Source: a virus. From it: a DNA stretch of 13,996 nt. The notes under the pieces were generated by a model. It saw nothing but the letters and a program-made list of their open reading frames with translations, was not told where the DNA came from and did not search any database. Location: UHGV virus genome UHGV-0150765. One strand, given 5' to 3'. The translations under genes were made by a program, and so were the position numbers. Shown one piece after another: positions 3,554 to 13,825 of the stretch; positions within the stretch are counted from its first letter, which is position 1; each line of letters starts with the position of its first letter.

Positions 3554-3961
3554 TCACTCAATTTCAATTTTACTAAATATACAGAATATGATGGAAAAGA
3601 CTATATAAGCACCACACACAGATTGAACTAATACCATTCCAAAGAACCAGACAATATTATCAAACCATGTCTGTTTTACGTCGAAAGGACGTAAACTTAC
3701 AGTAATATTATCTCCTTTTTCTATTGAAGAATACATCTCCGGTGAAATATATTCGCTAAATCTATAACCGTCTTTGAGTTCATATACGGCAATAAACGAT
3801 AAACTAGACCCCTTTCCTTGAGTTCCTGTAAGGGTATTAACTACAGCAACATCATAATCTTTATAATGCATATAATCATTAATAGCATAATAACCATATG
3901 CAACTACTACACATAAACAACATATCAATAAATTCAATCTTTTAATTATCAACTGTTTCAT
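3554..3961 (-). CDS. small membrane protein, 135 aa, hydrophobic segments at both ends
   Basis: ATG at 3961-3959. N-terminal LNLLICCLCVVVAYGYYAI and C-terminal IVWFFGMVLVQSVCGAYIVFSIIFCIF look like TM helices. Stop is 7 nt from the next start. Confidence 0.7.
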   Translation of the reverse strand: MKQLIIKRLNLLICCLCVVVAYGYYAINDYMHYKDYDVAVVNTLTGTQGKGSSLSFIAVYELKDGYRFSEYISPEMYSSIEKGDNITVSLRPFDVKQTWFDNIVWFFGMVLVQSVCGAYIVFSIIFCIFSKIEIE

Positions 3962-4016: not shown

Positions 4017-4544
4017 TTATGCGAGTACCGTCTTTAACCGTTCTTCAAACTTCCGAAGAGTATTTTGGCGTTCAGCTCTTTGCTTTTTGTAAGTTTCAAT
4101 ACGCTCTGAAATGAGAGTGTATCGTTCATTTACTGATTCTTTCATAAAATCAGGAATTTCACGAGAAGCTTTAATCTCATCAAATTTATCAATAACAGCT
4201 TGCTCTTCAGCAATTAAGTTATCATACATCAAAATATCTTTCTTGATGAACTCAATATCTTCTTGAGTTACACGAGATAATTTAGATGCTTTATCCTTTT
4301 TGTACTGTTCGTTAGTATCACGAGACCAGTGTAATGTACGATTTTTATTCGTATTCTTGTAAATTTCTACAATACCAATCTCATCGATAATAACGATCCA
4401 ATTCCAACGGGATTTGTAAATTTGTCCTCCATTAACAGTGATTTCACCTCCGATTGAGATGTCATTAAAGAACTTGCTTTGTGCTTCAGATTTAAATTTA
4501 CCATCGTTGTAATTTACCAGGTTGAAAATATCTTTAGCGTTCAT
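4017..4544 (-). CDS. hypothetical protein, 175 aa
   Basis: Track ORF 4017..4604 starts at a TTG inside the early-promoter box. First ATG at 4544-4542 has GGAGG SD. The promoter at 4573..4602 would place the mRNA 5' end just upstream. Confidence 0.75.
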   Translation of the reverse strand: MNAKDIFNLVNYNDGKFKSEAQSKFFNDISIGGEITVNGGQIYKSRWNWIVIIDEIGIVEIYKNTNKNRTLHWSRDTNEQYKKDKASKLSRVTQEDIEFIKKDILMYDNLIAEEQAVIDKFDEIKASREIPDFMKESVNERYTLISERIETYKKQRAERQNTLRKFEERLKTVLA

Positions 4545-4572
4545 TTTGTGTTCCTCCGTAGTTGATAGTTGT

Positions 4573-4602
4573 ATAGTACCACAGAGGAACGGTCTTGTAA
4601 AC
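4573..4602 (-). promoter_or_regulatory. T4-type early promoter for 4017..4544, with conserved downstream box
   Basis: Minus strand GTTTAC (4602-4597), 18-nt spacer, GTGGTACTATACAACTATCAAC. The 21-mer at 4561..4581 is identical to 6000..6020. Confidence 0.7.
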
Positions 4603-4604
4603 AA

Positions 4605-4907
4605 CTAAAAGAAACTTCTTTCACAATTTTTTCCACTGAACCAAGCGCTCACTGCTTTCTTAGTCTCAGGAGCGGTGTTATCCATAAACCATTCAAAGGC
4701 AGCCTTTTTATGATTCTGGAGGGCTTCTCGGGCTTTAATCTGCTCACGGTCTATTAACACTAACATATGAGCCTTTCTTGTCACCATGGGCTTCTTATGA
4801 TTTTTTGAATACTCCCAATCATTTGTCCATCGCATCGTTGTTGCGAATTGAAGTACAGCTTCTTTAATCTTAGTTTCGTAAATTTCACGAGCCTTTGAGT
4901 ATAACAT
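4605..4907 (-). CDS. hypothetical protein, about 100 aa, predicted helical
   Basis: ATG at 4907-4905 has GGAGG 5 nt upstream; an in-frame ATG at 4919 lacks an SD. The 3' end runs into the -35 of the downstream early promoter. Confidence 0.65.
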   Translation of the reverse strand: MLYSKAREIYETKIKEAVLQFATTMRWTNDWEYSKNHKKPMVTRKAHMLVLIDREQIKAREALQNHKKAAFEWFMDNTAPETKKAVSAWFSGKNCERSFF

Positions 4908-5008: not shown

Positions 5009-5977
5009 TTATTTCAGAAGAGTAACCTCAGCGATTTCTTCCCAACCGTTTTTGTCGGTCATAATAAAGTCAGCAAGATAAAGTGCAGTACGCAGTGAAA
5101 CATTGCGTAAACGGTTAACATTGACTTTCATCCATGATAATGCTTTATAAGTTTCTTCATCAGAAAGACCGCGTTTTTGCATCATGTCAGTTGAAAGAAT
5201 AACATCTTCAACCCTGACCATAATTTCTTCATTAGTGTGAACACCCAAATCTAAATAAACTGAGCGGGACACTAATGCTTGTAAATGTGGAGCAAGTTTA
5301 GTACCACGGTCTAATTCGCGGTCAATATCAACGTTTGTGATAAAAACAATCGTTCCTTTAAATTCAAACTCACGCTCAATGCCTTTTTCTTCTAAGTAAG
5401 AAGATGCAGTGCTCCAGCAGACTTTACGGGTCTCTCCAGTGTCCAGAGCAGCTTTCAGAAGATTAAGAATGTCCATATCAGAGAAAACATCCACATCATC
5501 AATCAAAAGGACAGAATTCTCTTCACGATTATTCCAGAGCTGTTCATAAAGACCGATACCAGAGATTTTACCATTAATGCTTTTATACTCAATGTATCCA
5601 ATATCATTTGCTTTATTTAAAGCTTTATCTAAAGAATACGTTTTACCAATACCTGCCGCACCAGAGATAATTAATGAACGAATATTTCCGTTAATAATAC
5701 CATTCGTCATCATTCCCATAACATTAAATCTTTTATTAATGCGGGTTTTCATATCTTCATATGATTCTTTAACTTCTTCAACTTTTACACCATCATATGA
5801 AATGTCTGATTTGTAAACCCAAACACCGCGACGTTTACCGTCAATTTCAACAAAAACTTTACCATCTCCTTGTGCATCTACTGGTGCATTATCAGGGAAC
5901 CATTCACCTAAGAACTCAAAAGTTCCAGAGATTTCTTTACCGAAGTAGATACCCTTATTGATAGTTACAGTTTTCAT
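5009..5977 (-). CDS. P-loop NTPase, Walker A GAAGIGKT and Walker B VLLIDDVD, 322 aa
   Basis: Track ORF 5009..6043 starts at a TTG inside the promoter. First ATG at 5977-5975 has GGAG SD. Walker A and B motifs read directly from the translation. N-terminal domain of about 110 aa has no recognised motif. Confidence 0.8.
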   Translation of the reverse strand: MKTVTINKGIYFGKEISGTFEFLGEWFPDNAPVDAQGDGKVFVEIDGKRRGVWVYKSDISYDGVKVEEVKESYEDMKTRINKRFNVMGMMTNGIINGNIRSLIISGAAGIGKTYSLDKALNKANDIGYIEYKSINGKISGIGLYEQLWNNREENSVLLIDDVDVFSDMDILNLLKAALDTGETRKVCWSTASSYLEEKGIEREFEFKGTIVFITNVDIDRELDRGTKLAPHLQALVSRSVYLDLGVHTNEEIMVRVEDVILSTDMMQKRGLSDEETYKALSWMKVNVNRLRNVSLRTALYLADFIMTDKNGWEEIAEVTLLK

Positions 5978-6011
5978 TTTATTCTCCAAATCCGTATCAG
6001 TTGATAGTTGT

Positions 6012-6041
6012 ATAGTACCATAAAGCTTTATGCTTGTAAAC
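6012..6041 (-). promoter_or_regulatory. T4-type early promoter for the P-loop ATPase gene, with conserved downstream box
   Basis: Minus strand GTTTAC (6041-6036), 18-nt spacer, TGGTACTATACAACTATCAAC. Lies directly downstream of the terminator at 6062..6090. Confidence 0.7.
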
Positions 6042-6061
6042 AACTTTGTGAAAAATTTTTG

Positions 6062-9650: not shown

Positions 9651-10037
9651 TTATTCGAGGGAAAGAAGATACTTACTCTGGTAAAACATTCCAGTAATAT
9701 CATCTATCGTGCTTTGGATGGCTGGAGGCATTTCTTTATAAATGCTGTTAGATTGGTCTAGTATGCGATCAATCATTTTAATTGTGTCGGTAGGAAGTTT
9801 ACTGGCATCTGGAATTGAAGGTGTGTATTTTCTACCAGAATACCCCAAATACTGCTCACCAAATTTATCAATCAAATTTGGCAACTCGGAAAAAATAAAA
9901 TCGTATGCTTTGTGTCTAGCATAACTTTTAGTTTCAAAATGCGCAGAATGAAAATAAGCTTGTGCAGCCATTAATAAACCTAAGTATTCATCTGCCTTTG
10001 AAGGTTTTCCACTTTGTGAAAAGTCGCTGAATTTCAT
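9651..10037 (-). CDS. hypothetical protein, 128 aa, in the position of T4 rI.-1
   Basis: ATG at 10037-10035 overlaps the rI stop (ATGA). A UUCG terminator follows at 9622..9646. No motif recognised. Confidence 0.7.
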
Positions 10038-10327
10038 TCAGTCTCCAATTTAATTTTCATAATTCTAGCGTATGATTGTGCCATCTCCGCGCCTCGCTCT
10101 ATACATTCAAAATCAGAAGAGCACGGGTCATTTTTATAGGTCGTTCTCATAAAACTATAGAATTGTTCAGACGATTCTACGCTTTTATTTTCAAAAAGCA
10201 TATAAACGTGCCTAATACCAGATTCCATAAATTTATCAAAATGAGGATCGACATTCGCTTCAATCGATGGAGATAAAACAAATGACAATCCTAGCATGGC
10301 AAATAGTGCCGTTGCTTTTAAGGCCAT
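10034..10327 (-). CDS. rI: lysis-inhibition regulator RI (antiholin), 97 aa
   Basis: MALKATALFAMLGLSFVLSPS... has an N-terminal signal-anchor and a periplasmic domain; length and sequence match my recollection of T4 RI. ATG at 10327 with AGGAGG SD. Lies next to tk as in T4. Confidence 0.85.
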   Translation of the reverse strand: MALKATALFAMLGLSFVLSPSIEANVDPHFDKFMESGIRHVYMLFENKSVESSEQFYSFMRTTYKNDPCSSDFECIERGAEMAQSYARIMKIKLETE

Positions 10328-11744: not shown

Positions 11745-11953
11745 AACCATGTCACCTTTAAGCAGTATTCTTCTACATGCTGTTTACGACCTTTCTTATC
11801 AATAAAGGTATATTCAACGAATGTTCCAATGTAGTCTTTATCTACATCATGTGGACTATTAATTGGACATTTAGTACGACAAATGCGTTCCCATTGACGA
11901 ATAATTACTGCCTTATTCTTTGGGTCATATGGATGTGGATAATGTATATTCAT
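11741..11953 (-). CDS. hypothetical small protein, 70 aa
   Basis: Track ORF starts at TTG. ATG at 11953-11951 overlaps the stop of the macro-domain gene (ATGA). Confidence 0.6.
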   Translation of the reverse strand: MNIHYPHPYDPKNKAVIIRQWERICRTKCPINSPHDVDKDYIGTFVEYTFIDKKGRKQHVEEYCLKVTWL

Positions 11954-12417
11954 AATAATGGTTCCCAATCAACAATCACAATTTCTAATTTAGAAGAATA
12001 TGTATCTAAAATATCTTCAATAATATCCCAGTTCCCTTTACCTATGCCTGCACCAATCCTAGGCATATAGATTGTAGGTTTAGTCAGTTTATTTTCACCA
12101 AACTCATTTAATTCTAACATACAATTCATTAAAGCGGAATACTCAAAATTTGGCCCTGGTTGAAATTGAGTATAAAGATTAAAGCAGTAAGCTTTATGAG
12201 TCCTAAAGTATTTTTCATAGACTGAGTAAGAACCGAGTTTAGTTACATCACCCCATTCAGTCTGTAATTTATCAGCTTCCAAAATTTTAGGGAAAGCTTT
12301 GGTTAATTGACCCGCTACGCCTGAACCCATAGTATGAAAACAATTGCATCCATGCGCAATATTTTTACCTTCAGCGAAAAGGGCGACAATATCGCCCTTG
12401 ATATATTTTACAATCAT
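11950..12417 (-). CDS. macro-domain protein (TARG1/Poa1p-like ADP-ribose binding or hydrolase fold), 155 aa
   Basis: IKGDIV ... IAHGCNCFHTMGSGVAGQL ... IYMPRIGAGIGKG matches the OARD1/Poa1p-type macro layout: an HxxxxC...MGAGIA-like motif plus a second glycine-rich loop. ATG at 12417 overlaps the upstream stop (ATGA). Confidence 0.7.
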   Translation of the reverse strand: MIVKYIKGDIVALFAEGKNIAHGCNCFHTMGSGVAGQLTKAFPKILEADKLQTEWGDVTKLGSYSVYEKYFRTHKAYCFNLYTQFQPGPNFEYSALMNCMLELNEFGENKLTKPTIYMPRIGAGIGKGNWDIIEDILDTYSSKLEIVIVDWEPLL

Positions 12418-12761
12418 CTAGTACTCAATCCTCGATTATAAGAATCTACCAAACGGTCAACCATTGAATGACAAGCGGCTTTATCTTTCTCCTCCGCAAC
12501 TGAGCATTCTAAGGTATTCCACTTTTTAGCATATCGTTTTAACAATGTATCGTTTTTGTATCTGCTTGATTTATCTCTTTCTCCGTCTTTATATGCATAT
12601 ATTAATTTCTGTGCAAATTCAGCTTGGCACGCTTTATTTTTCCCACAATAATCTGCCGCAGTGCGGTTTACATATTCTCTAATTTCAGTATATGATGTAT
12701 CTGCTGATGCAGAAGCAGAAAATGAAATTAATCCTATACATAAAACCAAAATTTTAGTCAT
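12414..12761 (-). CDS. small secreted protein with four Cys, 115 aa, in the position of T4 vs
   Basis: N-terminal MTKILVLCIGLISFSASASA is a typical Sec signal peptide (AxA site). Four Cys in the mature part. Start overlaps the transglycosylase gene by 8 nt. Confidence 0.65.
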   Translation of the reverse strand: MTKILVLCIGLISFSASASADTSYTEIREYVNRTAADYCGKNKACQAEFAQKLIYAYKDGERDKSSRYKNDTLLKRYAKKWNTLECSVAEEKDKAACHSMVDRLVDSYNRGLSTR

Positions 12762-13299
12762 TTACTATTTCCAAAAGTTTATTATTTTTAAGGTAATTAG
12801 CCTTTTCTAGGACTTCAGAAGCATATTTAGAACCAGCTTTAACATTCCATCCCGAATTATAAGAGGATATTGCTTTTCTTATATCGCCCTTATGTATATT
12901 TAACCAATAAGAAAGTTCAATGTACGCCCAGGAAGCTGAATTGGATCGTTTATTCAACATTCTTTTTATTTCAGCATCGGTCATATTATAACCAAGTTCC
13001 TTAACTCTCGCTCGCATAGTAGGCAAATAATTTTGGAACATTCCATAGGCGTGATGCTTTGGTTTAGATTTTAAATTAACTCCGCCAGAGCTTTCTTGCC
13101 ATAAAATGGCTGCCATTATATGACCTAATCCACTCTTGTGGATGTTTTTGTGTGTTTTATATTTTCCATCCTTAGAAAATTGTTCCCCGAATTGATACGC
13201 GTAACGCATGTTATCGAGTTGGACATTACTGAAAGTATGCTCGGAGCTATGTGCCATCATTGAAATGGCCAATAGACCAGCGAGTAGTGCTTTTCTCAT
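12754..13299 (-). CDS. periplasmic lytic transglycosylase-like (SLT domain) protein, 181 aa, in the position of T4 vs.1
   Basis: Signal peptide MRKALLAGLLAISMMAHS, then SLT motifs: catalytic QESSG (E-S), YGMFQ (GLMQ-like) and SYNSGWN (AYNxG-like). ATG at 13299 with GAGGT SD. Confidence 0.8.
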   Translation of the reverse strand: MRKALLAGLLAISMMAHSSEHTFSNVQLDNMRYAYQFGEQFSKDGKYKTHKNIHKSGLGHIMAAILWQESSGGVNLKSKPKHHAYGMFQNYLPTMRARVKELGYNMTDAEIKRMLNKRSNSASWAYIELSYWLNIHKGDIRKAISSYNSGWNVKAGSKYASEVLEKANYLKNNKLLEIVND

Positions 13300-13306
13300 G
13301 CTTACC

Positions 13307-13768
13307 TCATTGAGTTTTAATTACTGCTTTAGAAGCCTTTCCTGGTAAACGACGACTGTTAATAATTGCCATCCTACATTGAAGTGACGGGTCTTTGAAC
13401 TTCTCATTAGGTTTACAAACTGTAAATCCAAGCCAAAGATTTCCATCCGTGATTTCTAAACGTCCAGGACGATATTCAACCCCATCAATAAAATCCTCGT
13501 CAATGTCAGGACGCGGAGGCATACTCAAGAATTCATTAACTTCTAAAACATGGTCTTTTATTTTGTGGAATAATTCAAAAACATATGTCTCATCAATCTC
13601 CCGTTGAATTGCACGATCAAGAAGATGTTGAGAATATTTTAGATGAAACGATGAGACCCCTGCTGCTTTTGATGCCTCACGAATCTCATTGTTAATTTGA
13701 CGAAACTCCGACTCAAAGTGACGACGGAGCTTATTTCGACGGATAAAAACTTCTGTGTTGATAGTCAT
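13307..13768 (-). CDS. regB: RegB site-specific endoribonuclease, 153 aa
   Basis: Length and sequence (MTINTEVFIRRNKLRRHFESEFRQINNEIREA...) match my recollection of T4 RegB. Its own SD is GAGGAG, containing the GGAG that RegB cleaves. Early promoter immediately upstream. Confidence 0.88.
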   Translation of the reverse strand: MTINTEVFIRRNKLRRHFESEFRQINNEIREASKAAGVSSFHLKYSQHLLDRAIQREIDETYVFELFHKIKDHVLEVNEFLSMPPRPDIDEDFIDGVEYRPGRLEITDGNLWLGFTVCKPNEKFKDPSLQCRMAIINSRRLPGKASKAVIKTQ

Positions 13769-13795: not shown

Positions 13796-13825
13796 ATTAT
13801 ACCACAGTCAAGAGGAAAAGTAAAC
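13796..13825 (-). promoter_or_regulatory. T4-type early promoter for regB
   Basis: Minus strand GTTTAC (13825-13820), 18-nt spacer ending in TGG, TATAAT (13801-13796). Confidence 0.75.

Follow-up and report, generated by a model that had tools for sequence, protein, structure and literature searches.

Small SLT enzymes such as VirB1, IpgF, EtgA and plasmid R1 P19 open the peptidoglycan locally for transport machines. Small exported proteins neutralise peptidoglycan glycosidases in the type VI effector-immunity pairs and in the case of the inhibitors Ivy, MliC and PliC; the type VI immunity genes lie directly downstream of the enzyme gene, and Ivy uses a disulfide-closed loop. In phage T4, the helical, disulfide-containing protein Spackle (gp61.3; 97 residues), from which a signal of 22 residues is cleaved, acts in the periplasm as a 1:1 inhibitor of the gp5 lysozyme (PMC7650644). 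In our study, a stretch of 13,996 nucleotides of the virus genome UHGV-0150765 (hereafter the window) was analysed with regard to the genes vs.1 and vs, which a reading made from the letters alone (the sequence-only reading) had described as an early periplasmic murein-cleaving enzyme and a secreted small protein. We propose, from sequence comparison and structural models, that vs.1 and vs form an early, coupled pair of Sec-exported proteins, namely a periplasmic lytic transglycosylase and a small partner, a reading that we regard as roughly an even call.

The vs.1 product (Vs.1) was found to resemble Slt70, MltD and MltE in its ES, GLMQ-like and AYNxG-like motifs, its lysozyme-like helical fold and its predicted periplasmic location, whereas it differs from them in consisting of the catalytic domain alone, with about 163 residues, and in being divergent in sequence, phage-encoded and transcribed in the early RNA class. 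The embedded or single-domain SLT modules of T7 gp16 and phi6 P5 were both among the fold matches of Vs.1. Unlike these two, and unlike VirB1, IpgF, EtgA and P19, Vs.1 adjoins no secretion or virion gene and is made after infection. The vs product (Vs) resembles Spackle in its size (115 residues), its predicted 20-residue signal, its modelled helical mature part and its cysteines, four in number. However, Vs is not homologous to Spackle, whose target gp5 is of the T4-lysozyme type and is encoded elsewhere in the genome, whereas Vs adjoins a GH23 enzyme and the binding of Vs to Vs.1 is only proposed. The type VI immunity proteins, Ivy, MliC and PliC were absent from the fold-search matches of Vs; Vs is all-helical in its model, whereas those inhibitors are mostly beta-rich.

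Positions 12300-13400 of the window were found to be 99.3% identical in DNA to phage RB27 and 98.8% to T4, and by this comparison the window is a segment of a Tequatrovirus (T4-type) genome. The two open reading frames (ORFs) of 181 and 115 codons with an 8-nucleotide overlap, as given by the sequence-only reading, were recovered on the minus strand at the same positions (Table 1). Window Vs.1 was 100% identical in protein sequence to T4 ORF 61.4 (vs.1, UniProt P13311) and window Vs was 100% identical to T4 ORF 60.9 (vs, UniProt P13310); the sequence-only reading had guessed T4 vs from position and had proposed a comparison with the T4 records, and because of these identities its guess is correct. 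Between those records and the window there is no sequence difference, and only the interpretation differs, since Vs is annotated as cytoplasmic yet its family looks exported. The minus-strand order was vs.3, regB, vs.1, vs, tk.4 ... tk, rI.1, rI, and the order regB-vs.1-vs-tk.4 is the same in T4. The identity and the adjacency of the two genes are established by sequence and comparison, and their overlap suggests translational coupling.

Vs.1 matched the Pfam SLT family (PF01464) over residues 61-154 with 25.1 bits, above the gathering cut-off of 21.3 (E-value 1.4e-5). An alignment of 28 homologues, with identity down to 41%, contained an invariant E69 in the WQESS motif, followed by invariant G86, F88 and Q89 in GMFQ (86-89) and invariant Y147, N148 and G150 in SYNSG (146-150), where S146 was near-invariant; Y159 was invariant too. 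The E69 equivalent was also kept in the homologues of Det7 and Aeromonas phage 31. These three motifs correspond to the ES, GLMQ and AYNxG motifs of family 1 lytic transglycosylases. The full SLT motif set claimed by the sequence-only reading was thus recovered with a Pfam match above cut-off and with conserved motifs, and the catalytic glutamate, on whose conservation in orthologs that reading was made to depend, was invariant. The AlphaFold2 model of Vs.1 had a predicted local distance difference test score (pLDDT) of 88.5, low in the signal segment, and its best Foldseek matches in the PDB were MltD, a GH23 chitinase, Slt, Slt70, the phi6 P5 lysin and T7 gp16. Mature Vs.1 was computed to have 163 residues, a mass of 18.8 kDa and an isoelectric point (pI) of 9.65, and it is devoid of cysteine. 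The motifs and the fold are established by comparison, and from them we infer the enzymatic activity; it is quite probable, on the alignment and the model, that Vs.1 is an active lytic transglycosylase. A marginal SLT similarity of vs.1 had already been noted in 2006 (PMC1524935).

Signal peptides were called with a strict home-made test of the three-part layout, together with conservation. The signal of Vs.1 consisted of MRK, ALLAGLLAISMMA and AHS with the cut before S, and that of Vs consisted of MTK, ILVLCIGLISF and SASASA with the cut before D, a typical layout for Sec export and signal peptidase I. The three parts were a positively charged start, about 13 hydrophobic residues as the core and a cleavage motif of small residues; they were present in 28 of the 28 aligned Vs.1 homologues and also in the distant homologues of Ackermannviridae and Aeromonas phages. 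In the Vs family, 36 of the 43 collected proteins passed the test; the seven failures were a fragment (P0013), three gene calls that are short at the N-terminus (P0093, P0105 and P0115) and three narrow misses that are still signal-like (P0008, P0011 and P0119). The N-terminal sequence was less conserved than the mature part in both families, yet the signal layout was kept. In one metagenomic Vs member (P0096, L004:4401-4727; MKKLFVLLIVFALSGC) the plain signal peptide was replaced by a lipobox, LSGC, which would tether the protein on the periplasmic side. A downstream start bypassing the signal peptide of Vs was ruled out, because the next methionine is residue 100 and no alternative start skips the hydrophobic segment. 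Among the 27 minus-strand ORFs of the window, the test flagged four, namely Vs, Vs.1, RI and one ORF of 135 codons; RI, a periplasmic antiholin, is the positive control, and no ORF with an identified cytoplasmic function was flagged. By this home-made test, the signal peptides that had been claimed for both proteins were found in both and across their families. The signal-peptide features are established by comparison, and we consider the actual export of both Vs.1 and Vs, which is deduced from them, very probable.

The Vs precursor contained five cysteines, of which C8 lies inside the signal peptide and C39, C45, C86 and C97 lie in the mature part; the count of four in the sequence-only reading is right for the mature part. 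By computation, mature Vs has 95 residues, 11.05 kDa and a pI of 8.9, and the precursor has 13.1 kDa. The four mature cysteines accounted for 4 of just 7 invariant columns across 21 diverse Vs-family sequences with identity down to 20%, and their conservation is established by this comparison. In the AlphaFold2 model (pLDDT 83) the mature part was a four-helix bundle with helices at 22-39, 43-63, 70-86 and 91-113, the signal segment was disordered, and the four mature cysteines were placed at helix-loop junctions. Fold searches returned no relative of the mature part, and its fold is of no known zinc-binding type. A zinc site was set aside in favour of probable disulfides, because the predicted signal peptide argues for the latter. 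N-terminally His-tagged Vs was insoluble in the cytoplasm of E. coli (PMC8076793), which would suit a protein dependent on export and oxidation, though as evidence it is weak. Vs was assigned to phrog_1256 (E-value 1.7e-39) and to PF26829, and PF26829 was found on all homologues. A profile search of 1.84 billion proteins gave eight representatives at 50% identity, all in T4-like phage contexts where checked. Distant members, 20-50% identical and in the same phrog_1256, were found in phages of Klebsiella, Salmonella, Erwinia, Proteus, Pseudomonas and Acinetobacter; as judged by these searches, the family is small and wider than a T4-based search implies. A sub-threshold Pfam match of Vs to Cauli_AT was discarded as spurious.

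According to the T4 omics data (PMC9697503), the RNAs of vs.1 and vs are both early-class, and their proteins, each of which was detected, are grouped as 'middle'. The statement of the sequence-only reading that the enzyme is made early is supported by the RNA class, although the protein class is 'middle'. In the HIDEN-SEQ transposon study of T4, vs and vs.1 were both non-essential, whereas gene e, which is essential for T4 plaque formation, contained almost no insertions. In lysogeny broth (LB) the mean insertions were 26.6 in vs and 22.6 in vs.1, as against 652 in vs.3 and 290 in tk.4 among the neighbours (HIDEN-SEQ Data S8). On M9-glucose, vs was the most depleted T4 gene (log2 fold change -2.19, adjusted p 0; bioRxiv 10.1101/2025.11.20.689424) and vs.1 was mildly depleted (log2 fold change -0.87, p 0.0055, adjusted p 0.155; HIDEN-SEQ Data S8). 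A clean vs knock-out plated poorly on M9 alone, which its authors interpreted, through the valyl-tRNA synthetase (ValRS) annotation of vs, as translation-related; the transposon and knock-out data fit a shared vs.1-vs pathway equally well.

The sequence-only reading had held Vs.1 to be distinct from an endolysin, and this agrees with its non-essentiality in T4, where gene e is almost without transposon insertions. Vs.1 departs from a canonical endolysin in its own predicted signal peptide, its early-class RNA and its non-essentiality. The roles of endolysin and of virion entry enzyme were both ruled out for Vs.1 by expression class together with non-essentiality; Vs.1 is not known to be a component of the T4 virion either. 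Another possibility is an accessory role of Vs.1 in lysis as an enzyme of the signal-anchor-release (SAR) type, which would remain inactive and tethered in the inner membrane until the holin fires, with Vs as its antagonist or chaperone in the periplasm. SAR endolysins are well established among phages, and Ala, Gly and Ser abound in the signal core of Vs.1, but this core is no longer than about 13 residues, and the AHS-S site after it is a good one for cleavage, as expected of a signal peptide that is removed. With an early-class RNA for vs.1, and with gene e essential for T4 plaques whereas vs.1 is non-essential, we regard the SAR-type enzyme as highly improbable.

The linkage of the two genes was followed in 12 genomes or contigs, representing nine phage genera and two metagenomic contigs. 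These were the window together with T4 and RB27, Dhakavirus, Marfavirus, Klebsiella phage Roth66, Gelderlandvirus S16, Roskildevirus Cronus, Bragavirus phiP4-3, Jiangsuvirus PspYZU05, two Acinetobacter phage genera and the two metagenomic contigs. In all 12, vs was present directly after vs.1, and every examined genome with Vs has that order. In 11 of them the junction lay between an 8-nucleotide overlap and a 3-nucleotide gap; the exception was Salmonella phage S16, with 8 nucleotides annotated between the two genes, but its vs start was apparently called too far downstream. The Acinetobacter phages kept the pair while the flanking regB and tk.4 were absent. In most distant clades a third gene, phrog_4957 (130-147 residues), was found in start/stop overlap with the end of vs; its protein has a Sec signal peptide by sequence (..NAWEKLPGYP..) and two conserved cysteines. 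At least 235 phage records contained the phrog_4957 gene, which was absent from T4, T4-like Tequatroviruses and the window. Acinetobacter phage Mokit (L009:1480-3347) contained five successive genes bearing a signal or an anchor, namely vs.1, vs, phrog_4957, a gene for a protein of 99 residues and the antiholin gene rI, a run that may be a gene block for the envelope or for the timing of lysis. The adjacency of vs.1 and vs across these genomes supports the idea of an enzyme with a partner. By analogy with Spackle, Vs may act on or with Vs.1, which we rate just short of an even call; their interaction and its direction are speculative.

Several observations weigh against such a pair. The Foldseek matches of Vs.1 had probabilities of 0.9-1.0 but modest E-values of 6e-3 to 0.3, and a profile search of PDB sequences with Vs.1 gave nothing better than a weak goose-lysozyme match (E-value 0.47); since there is no solved sequence relative beyond that match, Vs.1 is a divergent member of GH23. 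The export call leans on the home-made heuristic and on conservation. No known muramidase inhibitor, Spackle and Ivy included, was similar to Vs in the fold and sequence searches. The transposon phenotype of vs.1 could be mere polarity on vs. Homologues of Vs.1 were found in about 2,046 phage records as against a detectable Vs in roughly 800-1,200, so that Vs is not an obligate partner of Vs.1; about 40-60% of the Vs.1-bearing phage records were without detectable Vs, and in Aeromonas phage 31 and Det7 unrelated genes follow vs.1.

In an alternative reading, Vs is periplasmic but independent of Vs.1, and the adjacency reflects the clustering of exported early proteins. Vs could then be an inhibitor of host lytic transglycosylases or of the gp5 lysozyme of superinfecting phages, or an accessory of the envelope or of lysis inhibition. 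Such independence agrees with the fact that Aeromonas phages, Ackermannviridae and genomes of Felixounavirus size have Vs.1 but no Vs, and with a minimal-medium phenotype that is stronger for the vs knock-out than for vs.1 insertions. The exported or anchored run of Mokit, ending in the antiholin gene rI, would likewise be a general 'envelope' block, and in T4 rI is located about 2 kb downstream. However, the immediate and often overlapping vs.1-vs junction was found in all 12 genomes or contigs and in nine genera, and an independent Vs seems unlikely to us.

The label 'valyl-tRNA synthetase modifier' reportedly goes back to the work of Marchin, Neidhardt and co-workers in the 1970s. Such a modifier would bind ValRS and alter its urea and heat stability, for which Muller and Marchin (1975, 1977) are cited as the original papers, and the tau factor was reportedly of about 10 kDa. 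Mutations in vs are also said to have been linked to ValRS properties in vivo or to phage behaviour on valS(ts) hosts; these phenotypes count against a periplasmic Vs, and against the proposed pair, because a periplasmic protein would not explain them. In the T4 record X04567 of 1986, the ORF was listed only as 'ORF 60.9' with no gene name. In the literature searched, which did not extend to the classical papers or the 2003 T4 genome review, we found no basis for equating vs with ORF 60.9, no functional study of vs.1 and no mention of a signal peptide in Vs. The binding of ValRS needs a cytoplasmic location, whereas the prediction gives Sec signals across the relatives, a lipobox variant and four invariant cysteines. 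A purely cytoplasmic Vs is unlikely from these sequence features, and the name 'valyl-tRNA synthetase modifier' is doubtful or needs reconciling. The sequence-only reading had found a signal peptide odd for a cytoplasmic ValRS role; the conflict is real, and the comparative data strengthened it. With 11.0 kDa, mature Vs is closer to the 10-kDa factor than the precursor with its 13.1 kDa, and this size is compatible with a correct assignment and an unexplained route to ValRS, with binding only once the cells have been broken, or with a mis-assignment among several small ORFs.

If the annotation is right, Vs would be the cytoplasmic tau factor on the host ValRS, its N-terminus would be no working export signal or the pool would be partly exported, the four cysteines would bind metal or be incidental, and the adjacency to vs.1 would be due to the tight packing of T4. 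The assignment is of long standing in GenBank, UniProt, Pfam PF26829 and phrog_1256, T4 genes commonly overlap (vs overlaps the unrelated tk.4 by 4 nucleotides), and both the nutrient-dependent plaque defect of the vs knock-out, as its authors read it, and the reported valS(ts) phenotypes of vs mutants agree with this annotation. On the other hand, the signal features were present in every full-length Vs member, the lipoprotein variant included, the four cysteines are invariant in a fold of no known zinc-binding type, and the pair was kept across nine phage genera despite changed flanks. The neighbours in the conserved cassette are also all predicted to be exported, and the step from the genetic vs locus to ORF 60.9 is without a gene name in X04567 and without a basis in the literature searched. 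A correct annotation is, in our view, decidedly improbable.

It is possible, though the balance leans against it, that the ValRS-modifier identity of ORF 60.9 is wrong or artefactual, that Vs is a periplasmic disulfide-bonded regulator of Vs.1 and that the cassette is an undescribed peptidoglycan-remodelling module. In that case either the genetic vs locus was put on the wrong small ORF or the basic mature Vs of 11 kDa meets ValRS only after breakage, and the module, with phrog_4957 in many clades, would matter most for hosts in poor medium. The labels were also found to have drifted in public records, where homologues of Vs.1 are called 'endoribonuclease/RegB' or 'C-type lysozyme/alpha-lactalbumin' and homologues of Vs are called 'valyl-tRNA synthetase', the enzyme itself.

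In the mechanism that we propose for the exported pair, vs.1 and vs would be co-transcribed early and translationally coupled, and both products would be exported by Sec. Vs.1 would cut the bond between N-acetylmuramic acid and N-acetylglucosamine of the peptidoglycan (MurNAc-GlcNAc) via Glu69, and it would be made well ahead of lysis and act apart from the holin/endolysin pathway. Vs would reach its four-helix fold in the periplasm, where two disulfides from the four invariant cysteines probably staple it, and would most likely work there and not on the cytoplasmic ValRS. The likeliest of its possible roles is to bind Vs.1 and restrain, target or otherwise regulate it, on the model of Spackle acting on the gp5 lysozyme. 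The purpose may be wall integrity during a long latent period or lysis inhibition, superinfection functions, or the release of muropeptides in poor medium. The sequence-only reading had also considered DNA entry; the two proteins are unlikely to help the phage's own genome to enter, since they are synthesised only once it has been injected.

Both genes, and the SLT hint for vs.1, were already known. The export signature across the whole Vs family, the invariant cysteine quartet and the vs.1-vs cassette, with or without the third gene, from Escherichia to Acinetobacter phages appear to be unremarked in the literature searched. T4 is the reference for the annotation of thousands of phage genomes, and roughly a thousand of them now bear the ValRS-modifier label, copied from it. 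A textbook assignment of 50 years needs another look if Vs is periplasmic, and the need for vs in minimal medium (bioRxiv 10.1101/2025.11.20.689424) would in that case point to cell-envelope biology and not to translation. If the proposed pair is real, it would be a second phage muramidase with a small partner besides gp5-Spackle, and it would assign a function to the early, peptidoglycan-cleaving but non-lytic enzyme of about 2,000 sequenced phages. If the label of ORF 60.9 is wrong, then PF26829, phrog_1256 and the annotations in about a thousand phage genomes are misnamed.

Table 1. Positions of the vs.1-vs genes, their predicted features and related loci. Plain numbers refer to the window; entries beginning with L are loci in other genomes or contigs.
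Feature	Position	Strand	Description
vs.1	12754..13299	-	181-residue precursor, predicted periplasmic GH23/SLT-type lytic transglycosylase
vs	12414..12761	-	115-residue precursor, small four-Cys four-helix protein, predicted exported; annotated 'valyl-tRNA synthetase modifier'
vs.1/vs overlap	12754..12761	-	8 nucleotides; vs.1 stop TAA over vs start ATGACTAA
vs.1 signal peptide, codons 1-18	13246..13299	-	predicted Sec, MRKALLAGLLAISMMAHS; cut predicted after AHS
GAA codon of Glu69	13093..13095	-	predicted catalytic acid of the ES motif; invariant alignment column
vs signal peptide, codons 1-20	12702..12761	-	predicted Sec, MTKILVLCIGLISFSASASA; cut predicted before Asp21
regB	13307..13768	-	endoribonuclease gene, upstream neighbour; Pfam PF10715, E-value 8e-69
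tk.4	11950..12417	-	macro-domain gene (AdfM), downstream neighbour; Pfam Macro; 4-nucleotide overlap with vs
Promoter-like site	13796..13824	-	TTTACT-17-TATAAT, TG before -10; upstream of regB; consensus scan
RI antiholin	10034-10327	-	flagged by the signal-peptide heuristic
135-residue ORF	3554-3961	-	flagged by the heuristic; long hydrophobic N-terminus (MKQLIIKRLNLLICCLCVVVAYGYY), five Cys
Loci with drifted labels	L006:1961-2500, L010:1501-2046, L005:2474-2824		annotation in public records
phrog_4957 loci	L010:2363-2755, L012:1518-1919, L009:2324-2749, L013:1527-1958, L014:1509-1925, L015:1500-1940, L016:1541-1984, L003:778-1185, L004:4724-5143		third gene

The promoter-like site upstream of regB is a candidate early promoter for a regB-vs.1-vs-tk.4 transcript; the number of sites found by the consensus scan was no higher than the shuffled expectation, and the old T4 record X04567 annotates potential promoters in this region. 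Pattern matching found no terminator-like site on the minus strand between 11900 and 13996, and hence none that separates regB, vs.1, vs and tk.4. A G+C-rich inverted repeat of 8 bp (AAGGGCGACAATATCGCCCTT) was present at 12379-12399, just within the 5' end of tk.4 and 18 nucleotides from the vs stop. This repeat was scored by the scan as terminator-like on the plus strand, and the mRNA of the minus strand would fold into a hairpin there, close to the start of tk.4.

In a metagenomic T4-like contig (L004:2800-3081), the ORF at the position of vs.4 was found to contain the Pfam domain Acb2_Tad1_hairpin. The T4 vs.4 product, which we take to be the anti-CBASS protein Acb2, fits this domain, and with that identity the early region mixes counter-defence genes with the exported pair. 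T4 Tk.4 has been described as AdfM, an anti-DarTG2 counter-defence factor, in a 2025 preprint (bioRxiv 10.1101/2025.11.20.689424). In the comparison of M9 with LB (HIDEN-SEQ Data S8), insertions in a-gt, b-gt and regA were depleted and insertions in dda, td, nrdA and nrdB were enriched.

A repeat of about 60 nucleotides was present at 4560-4621 and 5999-6060, with blocks 93% and 75% identical, just upstream of two ORFs of the nrdC.8-nrdC.10 region. On the minus strand it resembles a duplicated T4 early-promoter region (GTTTACAAG ... TACTATAC), and the TTG-started ORFs 4017-4604 and 5009-6043 therefore share false N-terminal extensions.

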